Of a stretch of 64,000 nucleotides of DNA, positions 7,752 through 57,946 are shown piece by piece. This DNA comes from a virus. Lineage: Duplodnaviria; Caudoviricetes. The stretch is taken from positions 1-64,000 of the IMG/VR virus record IMGVR_UViG_3300013901_000015, one strand, 5' to 3'. How positions within the stretch are numbered: position 1 is the stretch's first letter; every line of letters starts with the position of its first letter. Both the position numbers and the translations under genes were made by a program. The notes under the pieces were generated by a model, which saw only the letters and a program-made list of their open reading frames with translations, was not told the DNA's origin and did no database searches.

Positions 7752-10544
7752 CTAGTTCTGCCCTCGGAGCAGAGAACGGCGGTTTTGGATGACAACGACC
7801 GAGCCTTGGAAGGAATCGCTTGCCTTGAAGTCGGTCAAGGTGTATTCGAAAGTGAAGTATGCCCACGGCTTGCCAAGGAGACTAGTTAGCTGGCACCAGT
7901 TCTGCCCCGCATTGTTATTGGCTAAAACCTTTAAGGTAAGTTTTCCTTGTGTTGTCTTACGAATGTTACGAATCTCTCGAAGACTCTTCAAAATCATCGA
8001 ACTGCCCAGCTTCATCGGTCGAGTAATGATGGTGCCGCTATATAGATTCTCGTCTTCATTGATGTCTGGTTTGTCGGTCAAAGAATATACATTTCCGTCC
8101 TCATCCTGTATCAAGTTGTCAGGGTAATCATTGACTACTGCCTGAGCTATGATGCCGCTGTTATCCACGGCAAACGTATGGTCCACCATATTGTAGATGT
8201 ACTGGTACGACTTATCCTTGGCGAAGATGCGCAGGAGAGAGTCACGATAGTCGTAGGCGACAAAGCTATCTACCAAAAACTTTGCTATGCTTAGGTCGGC
8301 TACTCGGTTCAATGAGATAGGACCTTCTTCCAGACGGTAGTATCGCATTGGGTCTGCTTGGCGACCTCGCAACTGTTCGCTAACACATGCAACGCTTCCT
8401 CCGCTCGCAGCCATCAAGCCTTTCTTGGAAGCAAAGAATATCAGTCGGTCGGTAGGCACCAGAGGCGAGTTCTCCAAGCATACCTCTCTGGAGATAGGAT
8501 AGGTTGCGCTATACAGTCCCTCGCTGTTGACCGACATTCCGTAAATACCTTCACTTGTGAACACCAACAGTGGGTACTGACCAAACTGCCCTTGGCTCAC
8601 AGCCTCAGTGTTGGCTACGATGCCAAGAATCTTGCCTGTACCAACGGTGTTGTCGCCCGACGCTTCAAAGACGAAAGGATTGTTGACAACAGAGGTGAAG
8701 ATTTGAGAGTTTAAATCCTCAAAATCACCACTAACCGTAGGTATATCCATATCAGATATTTTTATACCGTTGTCAGGGGCAGGGAGATTTGCGAAACTAT
8801 ATGCTCCATTTAGCATTTTATGAGTATGCAGATTCACATGCCACCCTTTTTTCTCTCCCTTTACCATGATAATCATTTCCTTTGCGTATGGGTCTGGATA
8901 GAAAAGCCACCCTGTAAATATCATCGGGTCAACGTTGTCGCTTGTGTCCGACTTTACCCAAGTGTCAATTTGCTGATTAACGATGTGAGTATAATATTCG
9001 TATTCGATTTTAACACCCTCCTTGCAGTCCGCAAAGAAGTTGAAGCCCTCAAATGGATAGCGTGCAGTTCCTACCGTGTTAAGTCTATTGTTATAGGTAA
9101 ACAACTTGCTAGGAACGAGTTTTGCCCATCCGTAATAATCATCGACCTTTAGCTGTTCCTGTTCTGTCAATGTGCTTACCACACCATTGTCAATGATGTT
9201 TATATCAGAAACGCCTTCACTTCTTTCGGAAGAATCATGCCATTCGCCATCAATATACTTGGAGTCAAAATCTAGCGAAAACAACTTATAGAACTGAGTC
9301 TTTTCCAACAGCTCTTTAATAATCTTTTCATTCGTCTTGTAAACAGGCATCAGCCATTCGGATGCAGCCGGGTGATAACCACCTCCAGTGTAAGTGGAAT
9401 CTCTAAAACTAACAACACTTTCATGATAACTACCTCCACCGTTGTAGAAGATTGTATTGTCTGTCTCCATTGGGTCTTTGAACTTCCAATCTTCGTTTAA
9501 CTCGAATGGCATAACGTCATCGGTTGCAAAAACAACCAACTCCTTTACTATATCCGACCAATTATCCTTGTTGTCTATGATAGCCTTGAAAAAGAGACCA
9601 CTATATCCAATATGGTACATATATTTTTTAGTATCATATCCTTCTTCGTAGTAACCTCTACTGCTCTTTCCAGTTTCTACAAATTTGCAATTTCGAGAAG
9701 TAGAAGGATAACAAATAATAGGATTTGATATACGAGTGTAACTACCATCAAACATTTTAAGGGCAAATCTTACAAAGAAAGGGAAAGCAAATTTATTCTT
9801 GTCTTTTACCCAGTTTATCATCTGGCTGACATGACCGACAACTGCATTTTTAAAATCAGTTTCTTTATCTTGTTTTACAGAATGATGAAAAAATAAGTCT
9901 CCAGGAAAACTATATTTATTTTGATCATAATCTGTGTCGTAAAGTTTATGTAAGTCATCGCCACTACGATGATAAAAAGCATAACGATTAACTAATTCTA
10001 CGAAACTTTCTATATTGCAAACAAAAGAATCTTTTTTCAAATCATCCTGCTCTTTTTGCCAATTATCAGTGGTTCCATCTGTGTAGAACTCCACCTTTGG
10101 CTTAGGAAGTTCTGTCCCGAGGTCGCTATACGAATGTCCCTTGCATAGCATATAATGCAAGCCTTTGTCCGTTGCGCATACTAGCGTATTACCCACACTC
10201 TTCACGTCAAGCAGTTTTGCATCGAGGTCAATAGTCTGCTTGTTTTCCTCTCGCTTCTCAGTCTCTCCATTTTTGAAGTTAACATAGCAAACGAGTTGCT
10301 CCTTATCCTCAATGTAAGTGATTAGGTTGCGATAATCTGCCAGCTTATGTACATAAACTAGCTTACCTTCAAGTGGAACACCACCTGTGATGTCCACTGG
10401 CTTCTGTATAGGCACCATGCTTCCATCCTTGTAGATGATGCCATCGCTCTCCAACAGCTCTCCATCCTCGCAGATTGTGTCACTCGGAATGTTGGTCATT
10501 CCCTTACTGAAACTCAGTGTTTTTGTCTCTGTGTTTTGTTCCAT
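7752..10544 (-). CDS. Tail nozzle/stabilization protein (P22 gp10 / T7 gp12-like)
   Basis: 930 aa, beta-rich; N-terminal FSKGMTNIPSD..DGEL, C-terminal beta-propeller-like SQGQFGQYPLLVFTSEGIY. Confidence 0.6.
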   Translation of the reverse strand: MEQNTETKTLSFSKGMTNIPSDTICEDGELLESDGIIYKDGSMVPIQKPVDITGGVPLEGKLVYVHKLADYRNLITYIEDKEQLVCYVNFKNGETEKREENKQTIDLDAKLLDVKSVGNTLVCATDKGLHYMLCKGHSYSDLGTELPKPKVEFYTDGTTDNWQKEQDDLKKDSFVCNIESFVELVNRYAFYHRSGDDLHKLYDTDYDQNKYSFPGDLFFHHSVKQDKETDFKNAVVGHVSQMINWVKDKNKFAFPFFVRFALKMFDGSYTRISNPIICYPSTSRNCKFVETGKSSRGYYEEGYDTKKYMYHIGYSGLFFKAIIDNKDNWSDIVKELVVFATDDVMPFELNEDWKFKDPMETDNTIFYNGGGSYHESVVSFRDSTYTGGGYHPAASEWLMPVYKTNEKIIKELLEKTQFYKLFSLDFDSKYIDGEWHDSSERSEGVSDINIIDNGVVSTLTEQEQLKVDDYYGWAKLVPSKLFTYNNRLNTVGTARYPFEGFNFFADCKEGVKIEYEYYTHIVNQQIDTWVKSDTSDNVDPMIFTGWLFYPDPYAKEMIIMVKGEKKGWHVNLHTHKMLNGAYSFANLPAPDNGIKISDMDIPTVSGDFEDLNSQIFTSVVNNPFVFEASGDNTVGTGKILGIVANTEAVSQGQFGQYPLLVFTSEGIYGMSVNSEGLYSATYPISREVCLENSPLVPTDRLIFFASKKGLMAASGGSVACVSEQLRGRQADPMRYYRLEEGPISLNRVADLSIAKFLVDSFVAYDYRDSLLRIFAKDKSYQYIYNMVDHTFAVDNSGIIAQAVVNDYPDNLIQDEDGNVYSLTDKPDINEDENLYSGTIITRPMKLGSSMILKSLREIRNIRKTTQGKLTLKVLANNNAGQNWCQLTSLLGKPWAYFTFEYTLTDFKASDSFQGSVVVIQNRRSLLRGQN

Positions 10545-21577: not shown

Positions 21578-21687
21578 TCCTCGCAGTTGGACTTGAACCA
21601 ACGACCAAGTTGCACGGTTTGATAAGAATGCGTTAAGGATTTACACTTCTGTTACGTGCTTGCTCTAACCAACTGAGCTATGCGAGG
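21578..21687 (-). ncRNA. tRNA-like element with enlarged anticodon arm
   Basis: Acceptor CCTCGCA/TGCGAGG, D-arm GCTC-AGTTGGTTA-GAGC, T-arm GTTGG-TTCAAGT-CCAAC; anticodon stem GCACG/CGTGC closes a 38-nt loop. Confidence 0.8.
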
Positions 21688-23104: not shown

Positions 23105-23121
23105 TTCACCTTATACCAAAC

Positions 23122-23153
23122 AAAAGAGGAGAGCACTAGACTCTCCTCTTTTG
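23122..23153. terminator. Bidirectional terminator between repressor and integrase
   Basis: AAAAGAGGAGAG...CTCTCCTCTTTT. Confidence 0.8.
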
Positions 23154-24290
23154 TTATATCTTACCCTCTAAATTATCAAAAGCCGACTGCACATCTTTAT
23201 TGAGAGTTCGGGCATACCTTGTGGTTTGTCTCAAAGTTGTATGACCAAGCACCCTTGCCACGATGTTGATGGGCATCCCCTTAGATAGAAACAATGTAGC
23301 AGCAGTGGCACGCCCCATGTGCGTATGAAGTCTATCGACTCCGACCATCTGCCCGATTACCTTTAGGTAGTCGTTATACTTCTGATTTGAAATCTTCGGC
23401 ATCTTAAAGTCGTATTTCTTTAGTAGTTCTACGGCAGGAGTGAGAAGCTGAAACACGAAATCAGTGTCTGTCTTCGTTCTTTTTGAATGATAGAACATCT
23501 TTCCGCCCATTTCCTCGCAGTTGGTGTAATCGAAAGATTGCAGGTCGGAGTAAGCCATACCAGTATAGCACTGGAACAAAAACAAATCCCTAGCTTGCTG
23601 CAAGTGTGGCGTAGCCAAGTCTAAAGCCTTGATCGCATCGAACTGTTCTTCGGTGACACAATCCACATACTGCTTTTCTCCCTTGCCAATATGGAAAGGA
23701 AGAAACTTGTAGGGATTCTGCTCAATCAATCCATCTATCACCGCATCATTGATAAATAGCTTGAGATACTTATGATAGTCATAGATGGTTGACTGAGCCT
23801 TTCCTTGCTTATGGAGGTATTCATCCATCGCGCGAATCTTAGCCACATTGCAATCAGAGAAGGCAATAATCTTTCCCCATTCCTCCAAGAACTTGATGAA
23901 GACATCATAGCGTTTCTTGGTGTGCTCGCATACCTTGCGCTCCTTACGTCTCTTCTTGCAGTATTCCAGAAAGGTTCCGCTCATATCATCCTCTCCATTG
24001 AAAAGAGTAGGAATTACAGACAAGTCAGTGCATCCCATCTTGGTCATTTTGAGAACCACTGCCTCGCCTCTCTCTCTGAACGCATCCAACTGCTCGTTGA
24101 GTGCATCGGCATTCTTGCATTTGATAATCTTCTGTTGTTTGTCAGACCATTGTGTCGGGACAACCTTGATGCCGGTCGAGATGTACTTTCTTTCCGACTT
24201 GTAAGAGAACCTTAATTCGATAGAAACTGGCTTTTGTGCCGTTCCTCGCTTCAACCGATTGTGAATAATACTTAAATTTACTCTAGCCAT
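23154..24290 (-). CDS. int: Tyrosine integrase (Bacteroidales type)
   Basis: Arm-binding N-terminus RKYISTGIKV..QW; catalytic domain TGMAYSDL, K, HMGR, LGH, TRYA. Confidence 0.93.
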   Translation of the reverse strand: MARVNLSIIHNRLKRGTAQKPVSIELRFSYKSERKYISTGIKVVPTQWSDKQQKIIKCKNADALNEQLDAFRERGEAVVLKMTKMGCTDLSVIPTLFNGEDDMSGTFLEYCKKRRKERKVCEHTKKRYDVFIKFLEEWGKIIAFSDCNVAKIRAMDEYLHKQGKAQSTIYDYHKYLKLFINDAVIDGLIEQNPYKFLPFHIGKGEKQYVDCVTEEQFDAIKALDLATPHLQQARDLFLFQCYTGMAYSDLQSFDYTNCEEMGGKMFYHSKRTKTDTDFVFQLLTPAVELLKKYDFKMPKISNQKYNDYLKVIGQMVGVDRLHTHMGRATAATLFLSKGMPINIVARVLGHTTLRQTTRYARTLNKDVQSAFDNLEGKI

Positions 24291-24723: not shown

Positions 24724-24755
24724 TTTGGATATTTGTCTAAGTTTGTGTACTTTTG
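24724..24755 (+). promoter_or_regulatory. Bacteroidota sigma-A promoter
   Basis: TTTG-N20-TACTTTTG. Confidence 0.8.
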
Positions 24756-24889
24756 CACTCGTCAATGACAAACTCCACTTTGAGTTGATTGAGCATTAGA
24801 TATTTATACCTGCATTCAATAGGTATCAAAATATAGGGGATTGATTAAATCGGTGGAGCGGTTTTTTCTTTCCCCGTTTTCTTTTCAAG

Positions 24890-25603
24890 ATGAACAAGAA
24901 TCTAAGATTAAGACTGGCTTTAGAAATGTTCGGCAACAAGGAGTTGCTGAAAGCTTTAGCTATGTTCTTGCTTATTCGCAAGAGAATAGGTTCTAACGTT
25001 CTCAAAGATTATAGCATAAACAAGTTGGTTAATTTACTAGGCGCACACGCACGCACGATTAAGAAACGCATGCATGTGTTGTCTCAGTATGGGCTTGTCA
25101 CGATAGTGGGAAAGACCCTTGTGTTGCGTTCCGTTGTGTCAAAACACGCAAAGCGCAATGTTAAGTTAGGAAAGATGGAGTATTCTACTCTAAAGAGTGT
25201 TGAGTATTCTCTGCAATCTATCTTGGTTGCAGTCATTCAAAGCAGAAAAGATTTCGCACAAAGGACTATTCGATATGCTCACGGAGCCAGCCACGACTAC
25301 AAGGTTGTTAAGGCTGCACGTAATGCTGCACGGAAGTTCGGGTACGGATTTGAGTATGTTGAGAAGGGGCTGTCATACAAGACCATTGCAAAGAAACTTG
25401 GAGTGAGTATCAAAACTGCGGTCGAAATCGTCAAATTTGCAGTAAAACACACAATTTTGAAGAAAACAAAGCATTTTATCTCTACTTATCTTCCTAAAGT
25501 AAACTTTATGGAAGGACTAGGCTATACATTTACTACTCGTAACTATGGGTATAATATTATGGCTAACACCTACTCAATCTCTCCATCCCTAGCCTTGGTA
25601 TAA
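24890..25603 (+). CDS. Basic winged-helix DNA-binding protein (Rep/regulator-like)
   Basis: Two HTH-like segments: SINKLVNLLGAHARTIKKRM and LSYKTIAKKLGVSIKTA. Confidence 0.6.
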   Translation: MNKNLRLRLALEMFGNKELLKALAMFLLIRKRIGSNVLKDYSINKLVNLLGAHARTIKKRMHVLSQYGLVTIVGKTLVLRSVVSKHAKRNVKLGKMEYSTLKSVEYSLQSILVAVIQSRKDFAQRTIRYAHGASHDYKVVKAARNAARKFGYGFEYVEKGLSYKTIAKKLGVSIKTAVEIVKFAVKHTILKKTKHFISTYLPKVNFMEGLGYTFTTRNYGYNIMANTYSISPSLALV

Positions 25604-25641
25604 TTAGATTGTAAAAAGTGCAGACTATAAATTTTACGTAT

Positions 25642-25947
25642 ATGAAGAATGAAACGAAGCTTAAGAAAGTAGTGAAGTTCCTTGATGAAAACGGCATCAA
25701 GCATGTGAAATCGAAAAATAAAGGGAAGGCAGGTCATAGTGACTTAGTTTTGCCTAGCTTTAGAATATACATCAAGCTCCAAGGCGAGGATGATGCGTTA
25801 TTCTACAAAAAGCACCATATAAGTGTGCATCCTGTATTTATCCGTGATTCAGAAACCCCGAAGTTCGTTATCGAAAAGATTCAGAATACAATCATCAGAG
25901 TTATGCAGGACAAACAAAAGTATTTCGAAAAATCAAAAAGACATTGA
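25642..25947 (+). CDS. Hypothetical protein, possible PD-(D/E)XK-like fold
   Basis: Start MKNETKL; SDLVLPSFRIYIKL pattern. Confidence 0.5.
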   Translation: MKNETKLKKVVKFLDENGIKHVKSKNKGKAGHSDLVLPSFRIYIKLQGEDDALFYKKHHISVHPVFIRDSETPKFVIEKIQNTIIRVMQDKQKYFEKSKRH

Positions 25948-25950
25948 GTT

Positions 25951-26640
25951 ATGGTACAAAGAACAAAGGAAGAAGAACTTAACATCGTCTTGAAGAACTA
26001 CGGCAAGCTCAAGTCGGAACGTGATTTCCTCAAAAAAGAGAACGAGGACTTGAAGAGCAAGTTGGCTCAGCAAGAAATCTTGTATAAGAATATGCTTGCA
26101 ACCTATTCCGAGAAATGTACTGACGATAAGTTTCGTAAAAGATATATAGCTTTGAACGATAAGTATAGAAAGCTACAAGAAAATTGCAAGAAAACACAGG
26201 AGTACATTGAAGAAAAGGCTGCAAAGTTGAAGTATCTTGCTGACGAAAACATCAAGCTAAAGAATATGCTCGATTCCCTGCGTGGCGCACTCTGTAGCGC
26301 ATACACTAGAGTTGATGATTTTTGCGATAGTCTGAATATCTCGAAACGTGGCGAGGATTGTCTTAGCCAAGGTGGCGAGGAAAAGATTGTTATTACTCAC
26401 CCCAAACAAGTCCCAGTGAGCGTTGCAGAGTATCAGCAGCAGCAATTCATCAAGTATATCCGTGATGTCGTTGACATTTACAAGAAGACCGGCACCCTCA
26501 ATGGGATAGCAAAGCTTGCGCAGAAATATGCGGTGTCTGCTATCACAAAGGTCAAGTTTTTCCAGTACAGACTAGACGAAGAACCTCTATCCGATAAGGA
26601 GATTCTAGAGGTTTACGAGAGACTAAAGAAGAAACAATAA
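25951..26640 (+). CDS. Coiled-coil hypothetical protein
   Basis: 229 aa with heptad-rich N-terminal half. Confidence 0.65.
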   Translation: MVQRTKEEELNIVLKNYGKLKSERDFLKKENEDLKSKLAQQEILYKNMLATYSEKCTDDKFRKRYIALNDKYRKLQENCKKTQEYIEEKAAKLKYLADENIKLKNMLDSLRGALCSAYTRVDDFCDSLNISKRGEDCLSQGGEEKIVITHPKQVPVSVAEYQQQQFIKYIRDVVDIYKKTGTLNGIAKLAQKYAVSAITKVKFFQYRLDEEPLSDKEILEVYERLKKKQ

Positions 26641-26660
26641 ATACTTTAATACTTTGAGTT

Positions 26661-26933
26661 ATGAAAAAGATTTTGTTGGCAGCAGTAGTTGTTGCAAGTT
26701 TGTTCGCTTCTTGCTCAGACGAGAAGACTTTCACCAAGAAAGATGGTTCTTCGTTTACTGCTCAGTCCTATGGATGGGCAAGTAAGGAAAACAAGGTTGA
26801 GGGTGTTGAGTACAAGCTGAATGTTCCAGATGTGGTGCTCTCTGTTGTGCTAAGCGAAACGATCATCGCACCAGTGCTTATCACTGCATACGATGTATGG
26901 GAGCCAGTATCTTATACAGAGTCAACCAAGTAA
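26661..26933 (+). CDS. Lipoprotein
   Basis: MKKILLAAVVVASLFAS-C lipobox; followed by hairpin GCCCTCTC-TTCG-GAGGGGGC. Confidence 0.75.
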   Translation: MKKILLAAVVVASLFASCSDEKTFTKKDGSSFTAQSYGWASKENKVEGVEYKLNVPDVVLSVVLSETIIAPVLITAYDVWEPVSYTESTK

Positions 26934-26972
26934 ACTAACTGCCCTCTCTTCGGAGGGGGCTGCTTAAAAGTT

Positions 26973-27209
26973 ATGCTTATGAGCAGCAGAAAAAACGAAA
27001 AGCATTACAAGAAAGAATCGTGGTCGGATAATTGCTATGTGTACATTATGATGCGCCGCTGCAATTTAAGTTGCTTTGACACTGGTAAGCCTTGCATAAA
27101 ATACCAAAACGCATATTGGAAAATAAAGCGTTGCCGATACTATTTCAAGGTAAAGCCAAGATTCCCGACCACGCTAGAAGCTTGGAAGAATAGAGTAAAA
27201 CCATTTTAA
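26973..27209 (+). CDS. Hypothetical basic Cys-containing protein
   Basis: 78 aa in operon. Confidence 0.45.
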   Translation: MLMSSRKNEKHYKKESWSDNCYVYIMMRRCNLSCFDTGKPCIKYQNAYWKIKRCRYYFKVKPRFPTTLEAWKNRVKPF

Positions 27210-27222
27210 TGTATAAACGATT

Positions 27223-27591
27223 ATGAAAACAAACGAGTTGAAGGATATTCTGCTGAAAGCAAAGGATGCTATTCAGAGAGGGGTTAACCATCGTGCTTTT
27301 GATATGAATAGTGTACTTGGTGGTATTGATAAAGCTGTGAAGTATCTTGATGGTGCCGACTTGATAGACCTCAACAAGGTTTGGCATCAGGCGAAAGATA
27401 AGATGCCGGACATCTATGGTGGGAGATTCAATGACTACCTGTGTGTGCATAAGTTCAGACCTTCGGGGCATACTCATCTAACACATGAAGAGAACTGTCC
27501 CGAGTTGGAGGAGTATCTAAAGAGGAACCCAAATGATTGGTGGTGCAATGTATGGAATTTACTGAAAAGTGAACACAATGAATTGAAGTAG
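27223..27591 (+). CDS. Hypothetical protein
   Basis: 122 aa. Confidence 0.6.
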   Translation: MKTNELKDILLKAKDAIQRGVNHRAFDMNSVLGGIDKAVKYLDGADLIDLNKVWHQAKDKMPDIYGGRFNDYLCVHKFRPSGHTHLTHEENCPELEEYLKRNPNDWWCNVWNLLKSEHNELK

Positions 27592-27601
27592 GAGGTGAAT
27601 A

Positions 27602-27946
27602 ATGAATCTATACAAAATGTATAAGCAGCGCATTCCTAGGAAATTGAAAAAGGCAGCAAAGTATGGTATAATACATAGCATAAATCAACGTACTATAAAT
27701 GCAGATGGTATATACAAAATGACAGAAGTGCATTCTTGGTCTATCCAAGGGAGAAGCACAAAATGGAAGGTCAAAGCCACATATAAGTGTGCCGCTGAAC
27801 ATAAGAGAATGCTCAACGAGAGAATGTCGTCGTGGCTGACTCGCAGAAAGGATGAGGAAGAAATGCTTGCTGAACTCAAAGAGAAGGAGCAGTATTTTCG
27901 AGGGAAAATCCCAGACATACCTTATACCGTCAAAGTTTCATTTTGA
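27602..27946 (+). CDS. Hypothetical protein (RIPRKLKKA motif)
   Basis: 114 aa, GGAGG upstream. Confidence 0.6.
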   Translation: MNLYKMYKQRIPRKLKKAAKYGIIHSINQRTINADGIYKMTEVHSWSIQGRSTKWKVKATYKCAAEHKRMLNERMSSWLTRRKDEEEMLAELKEKEQYFRGKIPDIPYTVKVSF

Positions 27947-27950
27947 ATAA

Positions 27951-27978
27951 AAAAGGAGAGCCTAGTGCCCTCCTTTTT
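27951..27978. terminator. Bidirectional terminator
   Basis: AAAAAGGAG.GC...GC.CTCCTTTTT at a convergent junction. Confidence 0.7.
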
Positions 27979-27979
27979 C

Positions 27980-28381
27980 TTATTCCTTGTTTTTGTCTCG
28001 ATCTCGTTTCTCCCTTATGGCTTGTCTTATCCACTCGGGTCTCTTGTTGCCCATAGCGTCTAGGAAATCATACATTTCCTCGTTAACGTGGATTACCACT
28101 CTGTTCACTAGGGCTTCCTTGCCCTTGCCTTTCCATCCGGCTCCCTCTCTGTAACCTCCCCACCCTGGGTGCAGGTTCTTCGCTTGCACCACCTTGCCTT
28201 TTCTCGTAAGGTTAAGGCGGAAGATAAGCTTCTTACCATTGTACACCTCGGCATACTGGGCATCGGGTGTTGTCTGTAGCACATTTTCGGCTACTGCCTT
28301 TATCTGCTCTTTCTTGTCGCTCAACATTTCCGTCTCGTCCAAGATGCACAAATCATCATATACTACGATTCTCGCTCTCAT
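27980..28381 (-). CDS. Protein with C-terminal ribbon-helix-helix-like DNA-binding segment
   Basis: GWGGYREGAG motif, then RVVIHVNEEMYDFL...WIRQAIREK. Confidence 0.6.
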   Translation of the reverse strand: MRARIVVYDDLCILDETEMLSDKKEQIKAVAENVLQTTPDAQYAEVYNGKKLIFRLNLTRKGKVVQAKNLHPGWGGYREGAGWKGKGKEALVNRVVIHVNEEMYDFLDAMGNKRPEWIRQAIREKRDRDKNKE

Positions 28382-28427
28382 AGCTTTCAGAAAATTGTGG
28401 GGAGTCAGTTACACTCCCCATTACCTT

Positions 28428-31888: not shown

Positions 31889-32164
31889 TTAAATGTTCAT
31901 ATACTCTTCCTTGGTGTGGTGTCCATTAAACCAAATGTCGTTTGATTCCTTTACGTTACCTCTCCATCTGTCTACGTTGTGTAACTTATAGATGTTATCA
32001 ACATATCTATCGAATATGGATTTAACCTTATTAACCTTTTCGAGTACCTTGTTTCTAACCTCTTTGCTTGGTCTTCCGTCCTTCCATGAATCGCACATCA
32101 GATAATTCATGATGTATGTTAACTGCTTGTACAACTCATAAGGCGATTTTTTCTTATTCTTCAT
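31889..32164 (-). CDS. Hypothetical early protein
   Basis: 91 aa. Confidence 0.6.
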   Translation of the reverse strand: MKNKKKSPYELYKQLTYIMNYLMCDSWKDGRPSKEVRNKVLEKVNKVKSIFDRYVDNIYKLHNVDRWRGNVKESNDIWFNGHHTKEEYMNI

Positions 32165-32181
32165 TGTCTTGTATTGTTTGC

Positions 32182-32230
32182 GTGGGGAGTGCGCTTGCGC
32201 ACTGGGGGCGCTGCCCCCTTATCTCCCCAC
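32182..32230. repeat. T-shaped double-hairpin repeat, copy 1
   Basis: GTGGGG-AGTGCGC TT GCGCACT-GGGGGC GCT GCCCCC-TTATCT-CCCCAC. Confidence 0.85.
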
Positions 32231-32237
32231 TGGTTTA

Positions 32238-32330
32238 TTACTCATCGGGCAAATGCTTGCCTTTCTCTATTGCCATTCTAAAGATGAATCCAATAATGGC
32301 TCCAAGTACATAAGGTGTTATATCTAGCAT
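32238..32330 (-). CDS. 30-aa TM microprotein (MLDITPYVLGAIIGFIFRMAIEKGKHLPDE)
   Basis: Translated by hand; starts 1 nt after the upstream stop. Confidence 0.5.
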   Translation of the reverse strand: MLDITPYVLGAIIGFIFRMAIEKGKHLPDE

Positions 32331-32331
32331 A

Positions 32332-32535
32332 TCACTTGCCCTCCATTATCTTCTTGTTGTACTTGTCGATGTCTTTCTCCGCTCTGCCGATTGCCTTGTC
32401 TATCTGTGTCAAGGCATCCTCGTGCAAGTTATAGAAGTATTCGTTTTCTCCTCTCTTGCCCTTGTTTCTTCTGACAATACAATTAAGTATTACCAACTGG
32501 TCGTGAGTGAGCGAAATGTTGTATCTCTTCTCCAT
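32332..32535 (-). CDS. Hypothetical early protein
   Basis: 67 aa. Confidence 0.6.
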   Translation of the reverse strand: MEKRYNISLTHDQLVILNCIVRRNKGKRGENEYFYNLHEDALTQIDKAIGRAEKDIDKYNKKIMEGK

Positions 32536-32624
32536 AGTCTGTTCCTTTCTTTTAATTGTTATTACTTGTGCGGTCTCACGTCTTGAACGTGAAGTGCTCC
32601 TCTATTCGCTGACCGCTCCTTGAT

Positions 32625-32870
32625 TTACATCTTGCCAAAGTTGAAGATTCTAACAAACTGGTATAAGGTTTCTCTGTCGCAAAGGTGGTACAAGTCCTCA
32701 AAGATAAACTCCTTGCACTCTCTTGTGCCCTCTCTGTAGGTCTCCTGCATCTGCTTTGCGGTTGCGTTGCCACAATCTAGCCAGTACAAGAAGATAGCCC
32801 CTAATGATTCGTAGTCGTTACTCTCATCATAGAATTTCTTCTGCTGCTCATAAGTCTTGTTCTTTCTCAT
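32625..32870 (-). CDS. Hypothetical early protein
   Basis: 81 aa. Confidence 0.6.
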   Translation of the reverse strand: MRKNKTYEQQKKFYDESNDYESLGAIFLYWLDCGNATAKQMQETYREGTRECKEFIFEDLYHLCDRETLYQFVRIFNFGKM

Positions 32871-32882
32871 TGTCGTATATCT

Positions 32883-33002
32883 TTAAAAGTTCTCTACTAA
32901 GTTGTCTAGGGTGGATTCCTCTCCACTGCCTAGCCAGTTCTGAAAATGCTTGAGGGCTCTTCTTATTGTGGCAACCTCTTCTTGTGATAAGTTCTTTATC
33001 AT
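32883..33002 (-). CDS. 39-aa hypothetical protein
   Basis: MIKNLSQEEVATIRRAL..., GGAGG 7 nt upstream. Confidence 0.5.
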   Translation of the reverse strand: MIKNLSQEEVATIRRALKHFQNWLGSGEESTLDNLVENF

Positions 33003-33018
33003 TATCTTACCTCCTATA

Positions 33019-33189
33019 TTAATAGTTTAACTTGTTCTTTAATGCTATTATCTCCTCGATGAGGGATTCAGCGAAATGCTCGGGATATGCTCCAATTTTC
33101 TCGTAACTTTGAATCGTTGGGATTCTATTGTCTAAAGCGATGATAATTGTTTGTATCTCATCACTTGTAAGTGTTATTGTTTTCTCCAT
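33019..33189 (-). CDS. 56-aa hypothetical protein
   Basis: MEKTITLTSDEIQTIIIAL..., GGAGG 7 nt upstream. Confidence 0.55.
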   Translation of the reverse strand: MEKTITLTSDEIQTIIIALDNRIPTIQSYEKIGAYPEHFAESLIEEIIALKNKLNY

Positions 33190-33206
33190 TATGTGACCTC
33201 CTATAA

Positions 33207-33338
33207 TTAGTTATAAACTCCTTGATTGCACTTGCTAGGGCATCTACCCAACTTGCAAGTATAATAGTCGTAGTCTTGCGATATTGGCGAGTAGTGATAA
33301 ACTCTGTACTCGCAATCGCTGCAATATTCGTTTATCAT
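33207..33338 (-). CDS. 43-aa Cys-rich microprotein
   Basis: MINEYCSDCEYR...YTCKLGRCPSKC, translated by hand. Confidence 0.5.
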   Translation of the reverse strand: MINEYCSDCEYRVYHYSPISQDYDYYTCKLGRCPSKCNQGVYN

Positions 33339-33356
33339 TGTCTTGTGTCCGTTAGG

Positions 33357-33403
33357 CTCGGGGGAGGGCGAAGCCCTGGGGGCTTGCCCCCTTATCTCCC
33401 GAG
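33357..33403. repeat. T-shaped double-hairpin repeat, copy 2
   Basis: CTCGGGGG-AGGGC GAA GCCCT-GGGGGC TT GCCCCC-TTATCT-CCCGAG. Confidence 0.85.
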
Positions 33404-33407
33404 GGTG

Positions 33408-33572
33408 TTACTCACTCATTTCATATACCCAAAATGTAGCTATTCTTTTCTCACCTTGTGCGGTGAAAGATAGCTTTGCAAAATTGTCTGCATCCTCCTT
33501 GTTATCGAATTGTCCCGACACATCAGTACTCTTTGTTACATTGTACTGCTTGATAACTAAATACTTCTTCAT
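33408..33572 (-). CDS. 54-aa hypothetical protein, first gene of the early array
   Basis: MKKYLVIKQYNVTK...GQFDNKEDADNFAKL, translated by hand. Confidence 0.55.
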   Translation of the reverse strand: MKKYLVIKQYNVTKSTDVSGQFDNKEDADNFAKLSFTAQGEKRIATFWVYEMSE

Positions 33573-33943
33573 TCTGTTGTTGCTTTAATAATTAAACTTC
33601 CGTTACCTAATAAAAGTGGAGGTGTACGTTTCCGCCCAACGTCTGCAAGCTATATGCAGCCTAGCTCCCTCTCTTAACGTTCGTGGGTCAACGTGTTTCG
33701 ATATTTAACCAGTCTAACACGACTGGGTGTTTGCTTCCGTCCTAGAAGAGTGTTTGAGACTTCTTTGTCTTTGCGCCTTTTGCAGTTCTGCGCTAACTGG
33801 GTTGCATTTTCCTTTGATGTTTGAAGAGTTCTATCTCTCTGCCTTTTCCCGACTAATCTGTTACTTTATAGAGGTAGTTAAACGTGAAGTGCTAACGTGC
33901 CATCGTTCCTCTTTGAAATCTCGTTGTAACTTGATTTCGAGTG

Positions 33944-33975
33944 CAAAAGTATGATTATAATCTCACATTACCAAA
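33944..33975 (-). promoter_or_regulatory. Consensus promoter driving the small-gene array
   Basis: Minus strand TTTG-N20-TACTTTTG. Confidence 0.8.
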
Positions 33976-34092
33976 TATTTTGAGGGAAAAGTGTATTACT
34001 TTAATGTTCCTTAACCATAAATGTTAGTTTATTAACAGAATATTACACATTTTACTATATTGTGGTATTATAATATGATTTTAAGGCTAAAG

Positions 34093-34124
34093 TTTGGTTA
34101 TTACAGAAAAAAGATGTATCTTTG
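34093..34124 (+). promoter_or_regulatory. Consensus promoter for the XRE gene
   Basis: TTTG-N20-TATCTTTG. Confidence 0.8.
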
Positions 34125-34149
34125 CAGTCAAATTATAATAATACAGAAT

Positions 34150-34446
34150 ATGGATATAAAAGGCAAGATAAAGGAAAAAGGGTTTAGCATGGTATCTGTT
34201 GCGAAAGAAATGGGTATCACAAGAGAAACGTTGTATGCTAACATATCGGGGAATACAACATATAAAACTATGCGCAAAGTGGCTGACGTTATTGGCTGCA
34301 AGGTCTCGGAGTTCTTCGAGGATGAGGAAGATAAAAAAGGAGACTTCGCCAGTTACATTCGGTATCGTGGCATACATTACACTGCCGACACTCTGGACGA
34401 GTTCTTTAAACAAGTGGATGAGTTGAGGACTATCACCAAGGAGTAA
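34150..34446 (+). CDS. XRE-family HTH regulator
   Basis: IKEKGFSMVSVAKEMGITRETLY...KVADVIGCKVSEFF; start MDIKG. Confidence 0.85.
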   Translation: MDIKGKIKEKGFSMVSVAKEMGITRETLYANISGNTTYKTMRKVADVIGCKVSEFFEDEEDKKGDFASYIRYRGIHYTADTLDEFFKQVDELRTITKE

Positions 34447-34467
34447 GGGCGCAAGCCCCCTCGGGCG

Positions 34468-34514
34468 TGGGGAGCGGCGCCAGCCGCTGGGGGCGCTGCC
34501 CCCTTATCTCCCCA
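34468..34514. repeat. T-shaped double-hairpin repeat, copy 3
   Basis: TGGGG-AGCGGC GCCA GCCGCT-GGGGGC GCT GCCCCC-TTATCT-CCCCA. Confidence 0.85.
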
Positions 34515-34569
34515 AGGTTCTCTTCCCTCTCTCCCCTGAATATACCTACATACACTCCAAGATACATTT

Positions 34570-34613
34570 CATCGTACTTCCATCGGAGTTACATCGGACT
34601 TGTATCGGACTTA
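34570..34613 (+). repeat. Four 11-bp iteron-like tandem repeats
   Basis: CATCGTACTTC CATCGGAGTTA CATCGGACTTG TATCGGACTTA. Confidence 0.75.
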
Positions 34614-35181
34614 TCCAAGAAGAGCGCATTATACTTTGAGATACCCTCGAAATATCCTCTCTAGACCATTGTTTCTAGATTGGCGAAGAATCCAGCACAA
34701 AACAGAGAAAAGCCCCGAAAACGGCTGAAATTGGCTCTAGATGGGCTTAAAAATGGGCTTAAACTGGCTCAAAACTCTCGAATTTGGGAGAAATCTCGGG
34801 GAATCGGGCGAAAATCGCAAAAATCGCTGAAAATGACTTGACTTCGAGTGTAACAAGCCCAAGAATGGGAGGAACACAAGGTTAAATCTTCTTAACGACT
34901 GCCTTGTGCGTGCGTGCGTACCTATTAATGCAACTAGCCGAAATCGAGGTAAATGAGCACAAAAGGGCAAATTATCATTTATCTTTACACTTTTGTTTTA
35001 TACTGTCTCGGAAACGATTGAGACTAAACATCTAATAACCAACTACTTGTATTTTCTTTACAATAATCGCTTTATTTGACAAAATGGCTCAGTTTAGGGC
35101 TGAATAGGTGAATGGGGTGAGGGTAAAATGCGCCCCGACTAACACATTTATGAGGTTTTGAGGACAAATTACCCTCATCGT

Positions 35182-35219
35182 GGTATCGGCAAAAGCGACC
35201 TTCAAATATTATATATTTG
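35182..35219 (+). promoter_or_regulatory. Putative late promoter GGTATCGG-N22-TATATTTG
   Basis: Same architecture as 5670-5707. Confidence 0.6.
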
Positions 35220-35247
35220 CCCTCGAAATCATCAAATAATAGCTATT

Positions 35248-36033
35248 ATGACAGAAATATTACTTAGAATCCCAAAGGACTTGACTGCATCCCCAGTGAT
35301 GGCAGACAAGAAGGAGTGGGTATTGGGTGCTGCCAGTCTTGCAGCAGGTGTCGCTTCCTCCATCTTTGGCGCAAACAAGGCGAAGAAGGCAGCGAGAAAG
35401 GCGCAAGCCGAGAACACTTACAGGACGAACGCTGAAAAGGCATGGTACGATAAGAACTACAACACGGACTACCTAGACACCAAGGCAGGGCAGAATCTTA
35501 TGAGACGTGCCAAGGAGGTGCAAGATGAGTATGTTCGCAAGGCAGATGGCGCTGCGGCTGTTGGTGGTGGCACTGCCGCTTCCGTGGCGATGGCTAAGGA
35601 GCAAGCAAACAAGGCGATGGGAGACACGATTGCCAACGTTGCAGCCCAAGACACTGCAAGAAAGCAACAAGTGGAGGATGCTCATCAACAGAACGTAATG
35701 CAGTTGAGCAGAGAGAGACAACAGATTGAGCAAGACAAGGCAAATGCTACTTCTCAAGCGGCTCAAAATATGTCGAATGCCCTCTTCTCGGCAGGTGTGA
35801 ACCAATTGGGGTCAGAACTAGAAGGAGGTAAAGGACTGAATAAGAGCGGTTTAACCAATCCAACACCTACACTTGATAACAAAAATGTAACACAAGTGGC
35901 TGAGGGACTATCACAGAGAACCAACCCGAACGGATTATTGAATCCTTCCACCACTAGCGGACACACCTTGCTAGATGATGCGGTGGGAGTGCTCAACAAG
36001 AAGAAGCCAGTCGTGCCCCATGTTGGAGTGTAG
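35248..36033 (+). CDS. Ejection/DNA-transfer protein (P22 gp7-like)
   Basis: Hydrophobic LGAASLAAGVASSIFGA followed by Ala/Gln-rich helical body; start MTEIL. Confidence 0.65.
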   Translation: MTEILLRIPKDLTASPVMADKKEWVLGAASLAAGVASSIFGANKAKKAARKAQAENTYRTNAEKAWYDKNYNTDYLDTKAGQNLMRRAKEVQDEYVRKADGAAAVGGGTAASVAMAKEQANKAMGDTIANVAAQDTARKQQVEDAHQQNVMQLSRERQQIEQDKANATSQAAQNMSNALFSAGVNQLGSELEGGKGLNKSGLTNPTPTLDNKNVTQVAEGLSQRTNPNGLLNPSTTSGHTLLDDAVGVLNKKKPVVPHVGV

Positions 36034-57261: not shown

Positions 57262-57292
57262 AAGGAGTGGGCGCAAGGCTCACTCCTTATTT
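57262..57292. terminator. Terminator after the giant gene
   Basis: AAGGAGTG...CACTCCTT-ATTTTT. Confidence 0.8.
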
Positions 57293-57946
57293 TTATCTAT
57301 AATATATATAATCTTGGTTCTTCTTTTTATAGCAAAAATAGATATAATAAATAATTGTATATAATACTGCTTCTATCATCGTCAAGAGAATAAACATCCA
57401 AGCCTCGTTATGATTGGAAGGGAAAAATATGTAGTTAAATTTTAATTGGACACTAATCCATAACACTAAAAACGTAACTACGTAGAATCCAACAACAATA
57501 GATACGACAAAAGTCAAAAAATGCTCATCATATTTTCGGTAAATATAATCAAGCAAATTCAATTCTTTGGTATAATACGTTCGTGCAACTATAAAAGGAG
57601 AGCAAACGACTGGGTAGAACAAAGAGATGGTTATCATCTCGCTTAAATAGTCCTCTCCAAAAAAATAATAATCCAAAAGAGCCATCATTGAGCAGCAAAC
57701 AATATTCGATAATGCCCAATACAAATATCTATATTTTATTCGATGGTAACCATGTTTTTCGCTTCCTAGACCTTTAGAAAGCATAAAAGGAATTAGTATA
57801 GCTATGATAGGGAAAGCTTGTTGATAAATTAAATCTCTCCCATTTTTGAAAAACATATACAATTCTGGCACTAGCATTAAAGCCCATACCATATATCTTA
57901 TATACCTATTTAATAAAAATCTCTTGATACCAGATTTCTGTTCCAT
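57293..57946 (-). CDS. Polytopic membrane protein (AT-rich moron)
   Basis: 217 aa, about 6 TM segments. Confidence 0.7.
   Translation of the reverse strand: MEQKSGIKRFLLNRYIRYMVWALMLVPELYMFFKNGRDLIYQQAFPIIAILIPFMLSKGLGSEKHGYHRIKYRYLYWALSNIVCCSMMALLDYYFFGEDYLSEMITISLFYPVVCSPFIVARTYYTKELNLLDYIYRKYDEHFLTFVVSIVVGFYVVTFLVLWISVQLKFNYIFFPSNHNEAWMFILLTMIEAVLYTIIYYIYFCYKKKNQDYIYYR

Follow-up and report, generated by a model that had tools for sequence, protein, structure and literature searches.

Intrinsic (Rho-independent) terminators, unidirectional ones included, and the hairpins that protect 3' ends after Rho-dependent termination share a GC-rich hairpin and a U-containing tail, and intrinsic terminators stand at operon ends, upstream of units that are to stay silent. 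In T4-type phages, PeSL (promoter-early stem-loop) cassettes combine a strong promoter with a terminator in sense orientation (Arbiol et al. 2010, PMC2839356), and they recur as same-orientation stem-loops among the small nonessential early genes of a mosaic region (PMC2839356). The promoter hairpins of phage N4 are compact and GC-rich and lie on one defined DNA strand, and their nonconserved stem bases need only pair (PMC4496689). Integron attC sites fold in a strand-specific manner, conserve structure more than sequence, and keep one orientation along an array of small genes. The primase (ssi) sites G4 oric and RSF1010 ssiA and ssiB carry one or more hairpins and, just 3' on one strand, a defined start sequence.

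The three T-shaped, GC-rich repeats analyzed here resemble each of these systems in part. They belong to a temperate gut phage of Prevotellaceae (75.9 kb; the window is the whole 64,000-nucleotide stretch analyzed), lie on its plus strand, and flank the region that controls lysis and lysogeny (Table 1). We tentatively read them as polar, rightward-acting terminator or insulator elements, of which copy 3 would end the immunity operon and shield the late operon; within a family of strand-polar elements specific to this phage lineage, they are best taken as the elaborate members. As with intrinsic terminators, an orientation-dependent effect is predicted. Unlike them, the phage elements have a branched fold and a short, near-invariant tail (UUAUCU) in place of the T-run of phage and host terminators, their extra copies lie antisense inside another operon, and the family is limited to a 4-kb region of one lineage.

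The sequence GCCCCCTTATCTCCC occurs exactly three times, in the window as in the whole 75,878-bp genome, each time on the plus strand, and the three copies are the strongest GC hairpins of the genome. A covariance model run on the window recovered these three alone (64.7, 63.3, and 47.7 bits; next match, 10.7 bits). In each copy, an outer stem of 8 bp (GTGGGGAG/CTCCCCAC) encloses hairpin 1, which varies, hairpin 2, which is conserved, and a TTAT linker; comparison of relatives indicates that hairpin 1 directly abuts the outer stem, that 2 nt (CT/GT) precede hairpin 2, and that TTAT is an unpaired junction strand. The preliminary description had located all three copies and had correctly noted their fixed orientation, although copy 3 follows an oppositely transcribed gene. 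It had also correctly named the hairpin 1 stems (TGCGC/GCGCA, GGGC/GCCC, and CGGC/GCCG) and the outer stems (GTGGGG/CCCCAC and CTCGGG/CCCGAG), the latter now refined to 8 bp from relatives; the AG..CT pairing it assigned to hairpin 1 is not conserved among them.

The three-way junction is the minimum-free-energy structure of copies 1 and 3, as DNA or RNA and on either strand (z = −2.4 to −4.9), while that of copy 2 is a competing rod. A switch between T-shape and rod was rejected, as the alternative rod is impossible in copies 1 and 3 and so is not conserved. In a transcript, the GC-rich hairpin folds at −30 to −33 kcal/mol (z = −2.2 to −4.9). Hammerhead or other small ribozymes would need junction strands longer than those seen (0, 2, and 4 nt), no tRNA model matches at the copies, and the coexistence of three different hairpin 1 sequences in one genome led us to discard sequence-specific duplex binding there.

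Table 1. Coordinates of the T-shaped repeats and of neighboring features (positions in the window)
Feature	Position	Strand	Details
Copy 1 (A-type)	32182..32230	+	Outer stem 32182-32189/32223-32230
Copy 1, hairpin 1	32190-32201	+	TGCGC-TT-GCGCA
Copy 1, hairpin 2	32204-32218	+	GGGGGC-GCT-GCCCCC
Copy 1, TTAT	32219-32222	+	
Copy 1, neighbors			Stop of minus-strand 30-aa ORF (32238-32330) on one side, ATG of minus-strand gene 31889-32164 on the other
Copy 2 (A-type)	33357..33403	+	Outer stem CTCGGG../..CCCGAG
Copy 2, hairpin 1	33365-33377	+	AGGGC-GAA-GCCCT
Copy 2, hairpin 2	33378-33391	+	GGGGGC-TT-GCCCCC
Copy 2, TTATCT	33392-33397	+	
Copy 2, neighbors			4-5 nt past stop of leftward gene 1; 18 nt ahead of ATG of gene 33207-33338
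Copy 3 (B-type, universal member)	34467..34514	+	Outer stem GTGGGGAG/CTCCCCA; begins 20 nt past stop of plus-strand HTH gene
Copy 3, hairpin 1		+	CGGC-GCCA-GCCG
Copy 3, hairpin 2	34489-34503	+	
Copy 3, TTAT	34504-34507	+	
Extra hairpin H0	34447..34458	+	GGGC-GCAA-GCCC; between HTH stop codon and copy 3
Pyrimidine-rich, G-poor tract	34515..34600	+	Immediately past copy 3; GGTTCTCTTCCCTCTCTCCCC...; C 31%, G 12%
Simple hairpin	28397..28421	+	GTGGGGAGT-CAGTTAC-ACTCCCCAT; stem sequence is the outer-stem sequence; A/T-rich runs on either side
Cro/CI-type HTH gene, 98 aa	34150..34446	+	Sole gene of rightward immunity operon in this phage
Rightward promoter, −7 box	34117..34124	+	TATCTTTG; TTTG at −33; drives HTH gene
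Leftward early promoter, −7 box	33944..33951	−	TACTTTTG; TTTG at −33
Leftward gene 1, 54 aa	33408..33572	−	Family ending ...WVYEMS*
Late promoter	35177..35219	+	ATCGTGGTATCG box and −7 box TATATTTG; first virion operon
Iteron-like repeats	34583-34615, 34735-34775		Adjoin element cluster
Canonical phage terminators	27947-27982, 23119-23155, 57262-57300		A-tract/hairpin/T-run

The element is present in more than 200 related Prevotellaceae phages and prophages, with compensatory changes that keep all three stems; the covarying, strand-fixed structured signal of the preliminary description is real and not a chance repeat. Across 49 distinct relatives, 94% of cells are paired, compared with 54 to 68% in slid controls, and three of the four hairpin 1 pairs show double changes; covariation of hairpin 2 and the outer stem is seen in relatives at a greater distance. 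The core unit starts with a small GC(GNA/GNNA)GC hairpin, which a pyrimidine linker of 2 nt joins to a strong GC hairpin with TTATCT(C/T)C after it, and in the T-shaped form an upstream GGGGAG pairs with CTCCCC of the tail. More distant relatives carry, in the leftward operon, simpler units made of a GC hairpin and TTATCTTC. Strand polarity is nearly absolute: over 120 loci, GC hairpins directly followed by TTATCT number 218 on the plus strand and 0 on the minus strand, and covariance-model matches fall on the plus strand in 149 of 149 and 92 of 93 cases. TTATCT itself is near-invariant over at least eight different stems, and in the one clade with a TTATCC tail (L367-L374), A and B copies have changed together. 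G.T wobbles inside the stems pair in the plus reading only, the counts of G.T and A.C at the distal outer-stem pairs (10 vs 8) being uninformative.

Rfam, where a match would have spoken against the preliminary description, gave none at gathering thresholds over the window and none at E ≤ 1 over 31900-35300. Distant blastn of the 31- to 36-kb region against GenBank phages returned nothing, an alignment-based search for related loci reached close relatives only, and a 15-mer scan with CCCCTCCTTATCTTC gave mostly chance matches outside this phage group. The motif is absent from 150 other genomes from the family of the Candidatus Segatella violae host and lies only inside the prophage in four host genomes; its restriction to prophages removed a host (REP-like) repeat from consideration. 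No PF01797 (Y1 HUH transposase) match was found that would fit REP/RAYT or IS200/IS605-type hairpin ends. A CRISPR-repeat mimic (RNA anti-CRISPR) was rejected because the exact pattern never forms an array in 185k species genomes. TTATCT and its surroundings resemble a DnaA box or IHF site at 6 to 7 of 9 positions at most. The T-shaped repeats are, on well-supported grounds, an uncatalogued structured motif with real covariation.

Gene context separates the two types. The B copy is universal: in close relatives (79 of 80) as in more distant ones (39 of 40; both exceptions being loci too short to test), it lies on the plus strand, 10 to 40 nt after the last gene of the rightward operon of HTH gene with or without membrane or lipoprotein genes, and 0.7 to 1.5 kb before the first late gene. 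Those membrane or lipoprotein genes are inserted between the HTH gene and B, the genes ahead of B being highly variable, and one relative, L381, has two tandem HTH-plus-lipoprotein modules with a T-shape at the end of each. A GGC-GNNA-GCC hairpin equivalent to H0 also precedes B copies in relatives. A copies are optional and in relatives are mostly tied to the leftward gene 1 family; on the strand that serves as template for the leftward genes, they keep a constant 17 to 19 nt to the next ATG. Copies 1 and 2 are antisense within the leftward early operon. Across copy 2, gene 1 and the gene that follows share a frame with 23 open codons; a loose test finds this in only 14 of 71 relatives, and we rejected a stimulator of stop-codon read-through or frameshifting. 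Ordinary Bacteroidetes −33/−7 promoters serve both operons, the leftward early one being followed by a leader of ~365 nt conserved in more than 80 relatives, and no such promoter lies beside the copies. Between the HTH gene and the late promoter there is no other plus-strand terminator candidate. The elements are confined to the ~4 kb that rightward transcription must cross toward the late operon and occur nowhere else in complete genomes.

In plus-strand RNA, each element would read as a hairpin followed by a U-rich tail (UUAUCU(C/U)C has 4 to 5 U in 8), and B copies carry a further U/C-rich run past the closing stem. In minus-strand RNA, it would read as a hairpin followed by A-rich sequence; the DNA upstream of the hairpins is T-rich, so that this RNA has no U-tail. 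The elements should consequently stop, or stabilize the 3' ends of, rightward transcripts only. From the anatomy, conservation, covariation, strand polarity, and gene context, we infer both termination itself and the rightward transcripts that A copies would meet. Copy 3 would terminate the rightward immunity operon (HTH gene with or without moron) and keep this constitutively transcribed unit from reading into the late virion operon, which lies 0.7 kb further on. With copies 1 and 2 in the nonterminating orientation, early transcription would run through them unhindered, and they would stop only antisense or rightward read-through; copy 3 and all B copies lie in sense orientation at the 3' ends of transcription units, unlike copies 1 and 2. 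The tract past copy 3 could be a U-rich tail and/or a Rho-entry region. Its place is taken in relatives by GAGGATTTTAC, GAGGATTCTTC, or ATTGTTCTTC, U/C-rich tracts follow B in every clade (GAGGATTTTAC, GGTTCTCTTCC, ATTGTTCTTC), and several relatives have, just ahead of the tract, a CCTC...GAGG helix able to close the whole branched fold. The simple hairpin at 28397, within the leftward gene array, has the look of a terminator that acts in both directions, and it may represent a reduced relative of the T-shaped repeats.

At the level of sequence and context, polar termination is supported by the place of B at the operon end, the ending of each tandem module, the lack of another plus-strand terminator candidate before the late promoter, the U/C-rich tracts past B, the plus polarity, the T-rich upstream flanks, the plus-only wobbles, the restriction to ~4 kb, and the contrast between optional A and universal B copies. 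The preliminary description had set a strand-specific terminator against its own proposal, and such a terminator is close to what the context appears to favor most. Five observations argue against it. UUAUCU is a poor U-tract, unlike the canonical A-tract/hairpin/T-run terminators of the phage and of the host genome sample, which have TTTT runs. A mere requirement for U-richness does not explain a TTATCT so little varied over so many stems. In about 60 relatives, no full-consensus plus-strand promoter that could feed A copies lies within 2.5 kb to their left. The conserved 3' arm of the outer stem implies that the RNA, if RNA is involved, extends past UUAUCU. Finally, several paralogous simple elements conserve 2- to 3-bp GCGAAGC minihairpins, which according to the Hirao/Yoshizawa minihairpin work are reportedly stable in DNA and hardly so in RNA.

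The near-invariant TTATCT, the U-tract that is poor beside host terminators, and the GCGAAGC-type minihairpins led us to keep a rival in which the elements act as folded plus-strand DNA and the minihairpin-hairpin-TTATCT unit is read by a replication, priming, or recombination protein. We consider this possible if unlikely, and unlikely to the same degree when it is widened to include a dedicated factor needing both fold and TTATCT. The plus strand would be exposed, for example, when it serves as lagging-strand template for a fork that moves rightward out of the replication module at ~25 kb, where a weak match to a DnaD-like loader (24890-25603) in a rightward operon would make it the lagging template here; this match is marginal (E about 8e-4). 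The strict single-strand polarity, whatever the local gene direction, agrees with a folded-DNA signal, as do the near-invariant 6-nt tail 3' of the hairpin, the clustering within ~4 kb beside iteron-like repeats, and the hairpin 1 cores of d(GCGNAGC) or GC-GNNA-GC type; the preliminary description had rightly pointed to compact loops and a minihairpin, and the GNA/GNNA loops and GCGAAGC-type units, the latter recalling d(GCGAAGC) minihairpins, belong to a kind familiar from stable DNA hairpins. Among the phage's own proteins, RecT, an SbcC-like protein, and NinG/Rap all act on branched DNA. However, no primase, PrimPol, Toprim, or HUH protein was detected, and domain searches for partner enzymes (RNA polymerase, Y1 transposase, PrimPol, and Toprim) were all negative; G4 oric and the RSF1010 ssi sites differ in this from the phage elements, for which no primase or dedicated replication protein was identified. 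The G.T wobbles fit RNA better than DNA, stems of 4 to 8 bp extrude poorly from duplex DNA, and a replication signal would not need its universal copy exactly at an operon end.

A main role as conserved linkers in homologous recombination, in the manner of PeSLs, with immunity and early cassettes swapped between coinfecting phages and any transcriptional effect secondary, is doubtful, though compatible with polar termination. The copies are indeed conserved islands between highly variable genes: in these intergenic gaps of the window, most relatives match only at 32160-32250, 33340-33420, and 34420-34520. Replacements the size of a gene adjoin the motif (relative L194 has a different gene 1 from the window, copy 2 being 98.7% identical), the genes ahead of B vary widely, a T-shape bounds each tandem immunity module of L381, direct orientation is what unequal homologous exchange would produce, and both copies changed together in the TTATCC clade. 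PeSLs provide a precedent in which, as here, repeated same-orientation stem-loops are plausible substrates for modular shuffling, but PeSLs have a promoter and sense orientation and the phage elements have neither, lying antisense in the early operon with their fixed spacing to the next ATG. Some breakpoints lie instead at ordinary gene boundaries, at a distance from the motif, and recombination alone does not explain compensatory changes that keep three stems around an invariant unpaired TTAT.

RNA-RNA cross-talk, in which pairing and duplex cleavage would make lysogenic and lytic transcripts antagonistic, is improbable. Because these direct repeats lie in units transcribed in opposite directions, the immunity-operon mRNA has at its 3' end a B sequence (plus RNA) complementary to the A sites that the early-left mRNA contains. 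In the window and close relatives, A and B are identical over ~30 nt (hairpin 2 and TTATCTCCCC), with a potential duplex of 30 to 48 bp, and hairpin-borne antisense control is common in phage immunity regions (OOP, sar, c4, and P4 CI). Yet many relatives have no A copies, within a genome, A and B usually have unlike hairpins 1, their stems differ in relative L192 and in distant clades, where the common sequence is only about 10 to 11 nt, and the concerted tail change of clade L367-L374 is equally explained by gene conversion. An anti-RBS small RNA was also rejected: some early genes have a Shine-Dalgarno region of GGAGATAA type whose reverse complement is TTATCTCC, a match treated as coincidence because only about 15% of early genes have the site and the TTATCC-tail clade keeps its GGAGATAA sites.

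The preliminary description had also offered N4-type promoters, in which the extruded plus strand would direct a phage polymerase to start leftward transcription beside it; we find this highly improbable. Leftward genes have the plus strand as their template, the distance from A copies to the next ATG is constant, and the GNA triloops resemble N4 promoter hairpins; like those promoters for the virion RNA polymerase, the phage elements are short, GC-rich, and compact in their loops and lie on one strand (PMC4496689). The N4 promoter is, however, a single hairpin centered at −11, and the phage fold is a double hairpin and three-way junction with a 3' TTATCT (PMC4496689). No cognate polymerase was found: PF00940 (single-subunit RNA polymerase) has no match in the genome (control genomes being uninformative), and Pfam and PDB sequence searches with the 6126-aa virion protein revealed no T7/N4-like RNA polymerase domain. 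Gene placement also differs. Both operons have ordinary promoters, the A copies are dispensable, and the sole universal copy follows an operon, with no gene to its left to drive, and would be antisense to the HTH operon.

Another of its suggestions, attC-like sites at which a tyrosine recombinase would insert and excise small gene cassettes through a folded single strand, matches the shared orientation, the conservation of structure above sequence in hairpin 1, and the small variable genes between copies but is barely credible and largely refuted, since the sole tyrosine recombinase, encoded 9 kb away, is a generic phage integrase with scores of 46 to 52 bits against Xer/integron models with cut-offs of 220 to 335 bits, the alignment shows a three-way junction with a TTAT linker and no GTTRRRY box, R'/R'' or R/L box-plus-bulge architecture, or extrahelical bases, the cassettes between copies span 1 to 6 genes and whole promoters where integron cassettes are single promoterless ORFs, and the homology breakpoints, whose mapping to the motif the preliminary description proposed to test, are not fixed at one point within it.

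The carriers of this element are common temperate phages of Segatella/Prevotella, major human gut bacteria in which phage regulation is essentially unstudied. In every relative examined, the element stands where the lysogeny module gives way to the virion genes, and it thereby offers a handle on how these prophages stay silent. On either reading, the motif could join motif libraries. If it is a polar terminator, it would provide a compact, orientation-dependent insulator part for Bacteroidales genetics. If, instead, TTATCT and the DNA-type minihairpins mean that folded DNA or a dedicated factor is at work, the element would represent a new class of signals, both structure-specific and strand-polar, that would organize replication priming, recombination, or factor-dependent one-way termination in and about the immunity region of Bacteroidales temperate phages.

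The strongest GC hairpins genome-wide are those at three sites in the leftward early operon (copies 1 and 2) and at the end of the rightward helix-turn-helix (HTH) operon (copy 3). GCCCCCTTATCTCCC occurs three times in the window and three times in the entire genome, on the plus strand each time, and a covariance model built from relatives' sequences matched only these copies in the window (64.7, 63.3, and 47.7 bits; next match, 10.7 bits), in agreement with the preliminary description of three T-shaped repeats. Comparison with relatives gives an 8-bp outer stem (GTGGGGAG/CTCCCCAC), hairpin 1 with a variable stem directly 3' of the outer-stem 5' arm, a 2-nt linker (CT/GT), hairpin 2 (GGGGGC-loop-GCCCCC), and an unpaired TTAT. 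This three-way junction is the minimum-free-energy structure of copies 1 and 3, whether folded as DNA or RNA (z −2.4 to −4.9); in copy 2, a rod fold competes with it.

The covariation described earlier was also borne out. Across 49 distinct sequences, paired cells amounted to 94%, versus 54 to 68% with slid partners, and three of the four hairpin-1 pairs showed double changes. Hairpin-1 stems among relatives include TGCGC, TGGC, CGGC, GGGC, GGGGC, GGGCGC, and GGCC. In a Tannerellaceae relative (L192), all three stems are changed and TTATCT is retained, with wobble pairs that are G.T when the plus strand is read. Reduced, one-hairpin T-shapes at four related loci (L059:1678-1719, L046:578-619, L163:6363-6404, and L115:2396-2440), in which the hairpin 1 5' arm is fused to the hairpin 2 3' arm, look like slippage deletions between two similar hairpins.

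The T-shape elaborates on a core "hairpin + TTATCT" unit, its CTCCCC tail being paired with a GGGGAG further upstream. The leftward operon of more distant clades carries simpler units, one GC hairpin followed by TTATCTTC, always on the plus strand and often with a GCGAAGC-type minihairpin and TT upstream. When the 5 kb ahead of the late gene was searched at 120 loci for GC hairpins with TTATCT immediately 3', 218 were counted on the plus strand and 0 on the minus strand. They fall into 32 distinct variants with at least seven different stems (GGAGGGGC, GGAGGGAC, GGGAGGC, GGGGC, GGGGCGG, GGGGGC, and GGTGGGC), and an eighth, GGGCC, was found in L192; some of their G.T wobbles pair in the plus reading only. 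Tail variants are rare (TTATCC, TTGTCT, TTAACT, and CTATCT), and in one clade TTATCC is common to both the leftward-operon and HTH-operon copies of the same genomes. Matches in five whole phage records are restricted to this ~4-kb region, and the hairpin-bearing form is restricted to this phage group.

An exact-pattern scan of IMG/VR returned 112 stretches, typically with two same-orientation copies 1.1 to 2.4 kb apart, and, when species genomes were scanned, prophages with the element were found in Segatella copri, Candidatus Segatella violae, Leyella stercorea, and a Tannerellaceae MAG. Within those host genomes the motif is confined to the prophage, and it was not found in 150 further genomes sampled from the Segatella violae host's family; a host repeat was therefore rejected, and the element belongs to the phage. 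The phage itself is temperate, with a full IMG/VR record of 75,878 bp rated complete by CheckV, of which the window is the first 64 kb. Besides a tyrosine integrase, it encodes RecT, an SbcC-like ATPase, NinG/Rap, dUTPase, Bro-N, a large terminase, and a 6126-aa polyvalent protein with ParB-like, methyltransferase, Strawberry-notch helicase, and LPD38 domains. A 930-aa open reading frame has no Pfam family, its closest protein-atlas clusters being virion "stabilization"/crAss muzzle-like proteins. Near the integrase, a 110-nt Rfam tRNA match (46 bits), which ARAGORN does not call, could represent a tRNA that has been interrupted or what is left of an attachment site.

Features of the repeat region and of the wider phage genome
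Feature	Position	Strand	Remark
Copy 1	32182-32230	+	
Copy 2	33357-33403	+	
Copy 3	34467-34514	+	
Leftward promoter	33951	-	
Rightward promoter	34117	+	
Leader	33573-33940	-	~365 nt, untranslated
Gene 1	33408-33572	-	
Gene 1 and next gene	33207-33572	-	same frame
Cro/CI-type HTH gene	34150-34446	+	98 aa
Small GNRA hairpin	34447-34458	+	between HTH gene and copy 3
Late promoter	35177-35219	+	upstream of virion genes
16-nt boxes	33878-33893; 32583-32598		
Operator-like boxes	33929-33946; 34836-34853; 35208-35231; 24748-24765		
Shine-Dalgarno sites	33002-33020; 33189-33207	-	
Iteron-like repeats	34583-34615; 34735-34775		non-coding
Rightward operon	24748-27946	+	
237-aa protein	24890-25603	+	
Canonical terminators	27947-27982; 23119-23155; 57262-57300		
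Tyrosine integrase	23154-24290	-	
tRNA match	21578-21687	-	
930-aa ORF	7752-10544	-	

Divergent Bacteroidetes-type promoters (TTTG at −33, TAnnTTTG at −7) open the leftward and rightward transcription units. Leftward, the leader is followed by gene 1, copy 2, six small genes, copy 1, and, as far as 27980, further small genes without a known family; rightward, the HTH gene is followed by the GNRA hairpin, copy 3, ~650 nt of non-coding DNA, the late promoter, and the virion genes. Copies 1 and 2 are wedged between minus-strand genes, with a stop codon 4 to 7 nt off and the next ATG 17 to 18 nt off, and their orientation relative to their genes is opposite to that of copy 3. Gene 1 and the next gene share a frame, with one TAA and 23 open codons through copy 2, probably by chance, since the open frame is found in only 14 of 71 relatives.

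Several other signals were noted. The leader is conserved in >80 relatives despite variable surrounding genes and has no match in Rfam; it may be a structured RNA or regulatory region. A 16-nt box, TT(G/A)AACGTGAAGTGCT (AGCACTTCACGTT as mRNA), is present both in the leader and between genes of the leftward operon, in a gap of 89 nt, a placement like that of nut-type sites. Operator-like boxes (GATTTCGAGTG; TACTTTTGCACTCG) recur at the promoters of the leftward unit and of the rightward operon at 24748 and in the late-promoter region, which suggests that one repressor controls several promoters. Strong Shine-Dalgarno sites, unusual in Bacteroidota, where such sites are rare, precede a few early genes (TATAGGAGGTAAGATAATG), and GGAGATAA-type sites are found at ~15% of relatives' early-left genes. 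Right of copy 3, where non-coding DNA from 34660 to 35250 is conserved, direct repeats (three ATCGGA(G/C)TT at 11-nt spacing, and TGGGCTTAAA/TGGCTCAAAA repeats with phased A-tracts) may form an origin or a binding array. The rightward operon may be a replication module; its 237-aa product has weak HTH_36 and DnaD-like helicase-loader matches.

Copy 3 is the universal copy, here called B. Among loci taken through the first late gene, 79 of the 80 from close relatives and 39 of the 40 from more distant relatives have a plus-strand T-shape 0.7 to 1.5 kb upstream of this gene, the remaining locus in each set being too short to test. The gene preceding this T-shape is sometimes the HTH gene itself but more commonly one for a membrane protein or lipoprotein downstream of it, as is typical of lysogeny operons made up of a repressor and "moron" genes. 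The leftward-operon copies, called A, are optional: they are missing entirely in eight relatives and elsewhere mostly accompany a gene-1 family ending ...WVYEMS. One relative (L381:1321-3948) carries a tandem pair of differing HTH+lipoprotein immunity-type modules, both of which end in a T-shape with the same ~300-nt segment behind it, an arrangement that looks like a recombination product at the repeat.

We tentatively read the repeats as polar terminators or insulators acting on rightward transcription only, giving this somewhat less than an even chance. The plus-strand RNA of the unit has a strong hairpin and then UUAUCU(C/U)C, and the minus-strand RNA has A-rich sequence after the same hairpin, so that the element would stop or end-protect rightward transcripts only. 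The B copy, the sole terminator candidate between the immunity and late operons on that strand, would end the constitutively expressed immunity operon before the late operon. U/C-rich, G-poor sequence lies 3' of B in all clades, and a CCTC...GAGG helix available in several relatives can enclose the entire branched fold directly before this tract. The A copies would be the same element in the sole orientation tolerable to the leftward operon, blocking only antisense or read-through transcription that runs to the immunity region and late genes. A possible source of it is the converging rightward operon, whose promoter has TACTTTTGCACTCG in common with the leftward promoter. Polar termination accounts for where the elements lie and how they are oriented, for their confinement to one region, and for A being dispensable.

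Several features are unexplained by polar termination and lend some weight to a signal in folded plus-strand DNA, which we consider appreciably less probable. The phage's other terminators have the canonical form (A-tract, hairpin, T-run), as do those in 148 kb of Leyella stercorea DNA, and none has the TTATCT tail that the repeats carry. A pure U-richness requirement would not account for a near-invariant TTATCT across at least eight stems, and the conserved outer-stem 3' arm implies that RNA must continue past UUAUCU. No full-consensus plus-strand promoter feeding the A copies was found in about 60 relatives. The 2- to 3-bp GCGAAGC or GC-GNNA-GC minihairpins also suit DNA, being famously stable in that form and marginal as RNA. 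Like the priming signals of G4 and RSF1010, the repeats combine a hairpin with a defined 3' sequence; if a fork set out from the weakly DnaD-like replication module at ~25 kb, its lagging template would be the plus strand, and the iteron-like repeats lie directly right of copy 3. However, searches for a primase, PrimPol, Toprim, or HUH protein were negative. The invariant tail and the DNA-type minihairpins leave some probability with this more novel reading.

The copies are conserved islands within a mosaic region and are adjoined by gene-sized replacements; they may therefore also serve as recombination linkers, as may the promoter-early stem-loop (PeSL) cassettes of T4-type phages (PMC2839356), a rather doubtful role but one compatible with polar termination. 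RNA-RNA cross-talk is unlikely: the RNAs of A and B are complementary, since these direct repeats belong to units transcribed in opposite directions, but many relatives lack A, and the A and B stems differ in distant relatives. The N4-like hairpin promoter first suggested is highly improbable, as no cognate polymerase was found and the universal B copy does not fit it, and the attC-like site proposed with it, lacking both an integron integrase and the defining boxes, is the least credible of all.

The repeats belong to a more extensive family, so far uncatalogued, of strand-polar structured elements in temperate Prevotellaceae phages. Their context is most consistent with a function in one-way termination and insulation where the immunity module ends.
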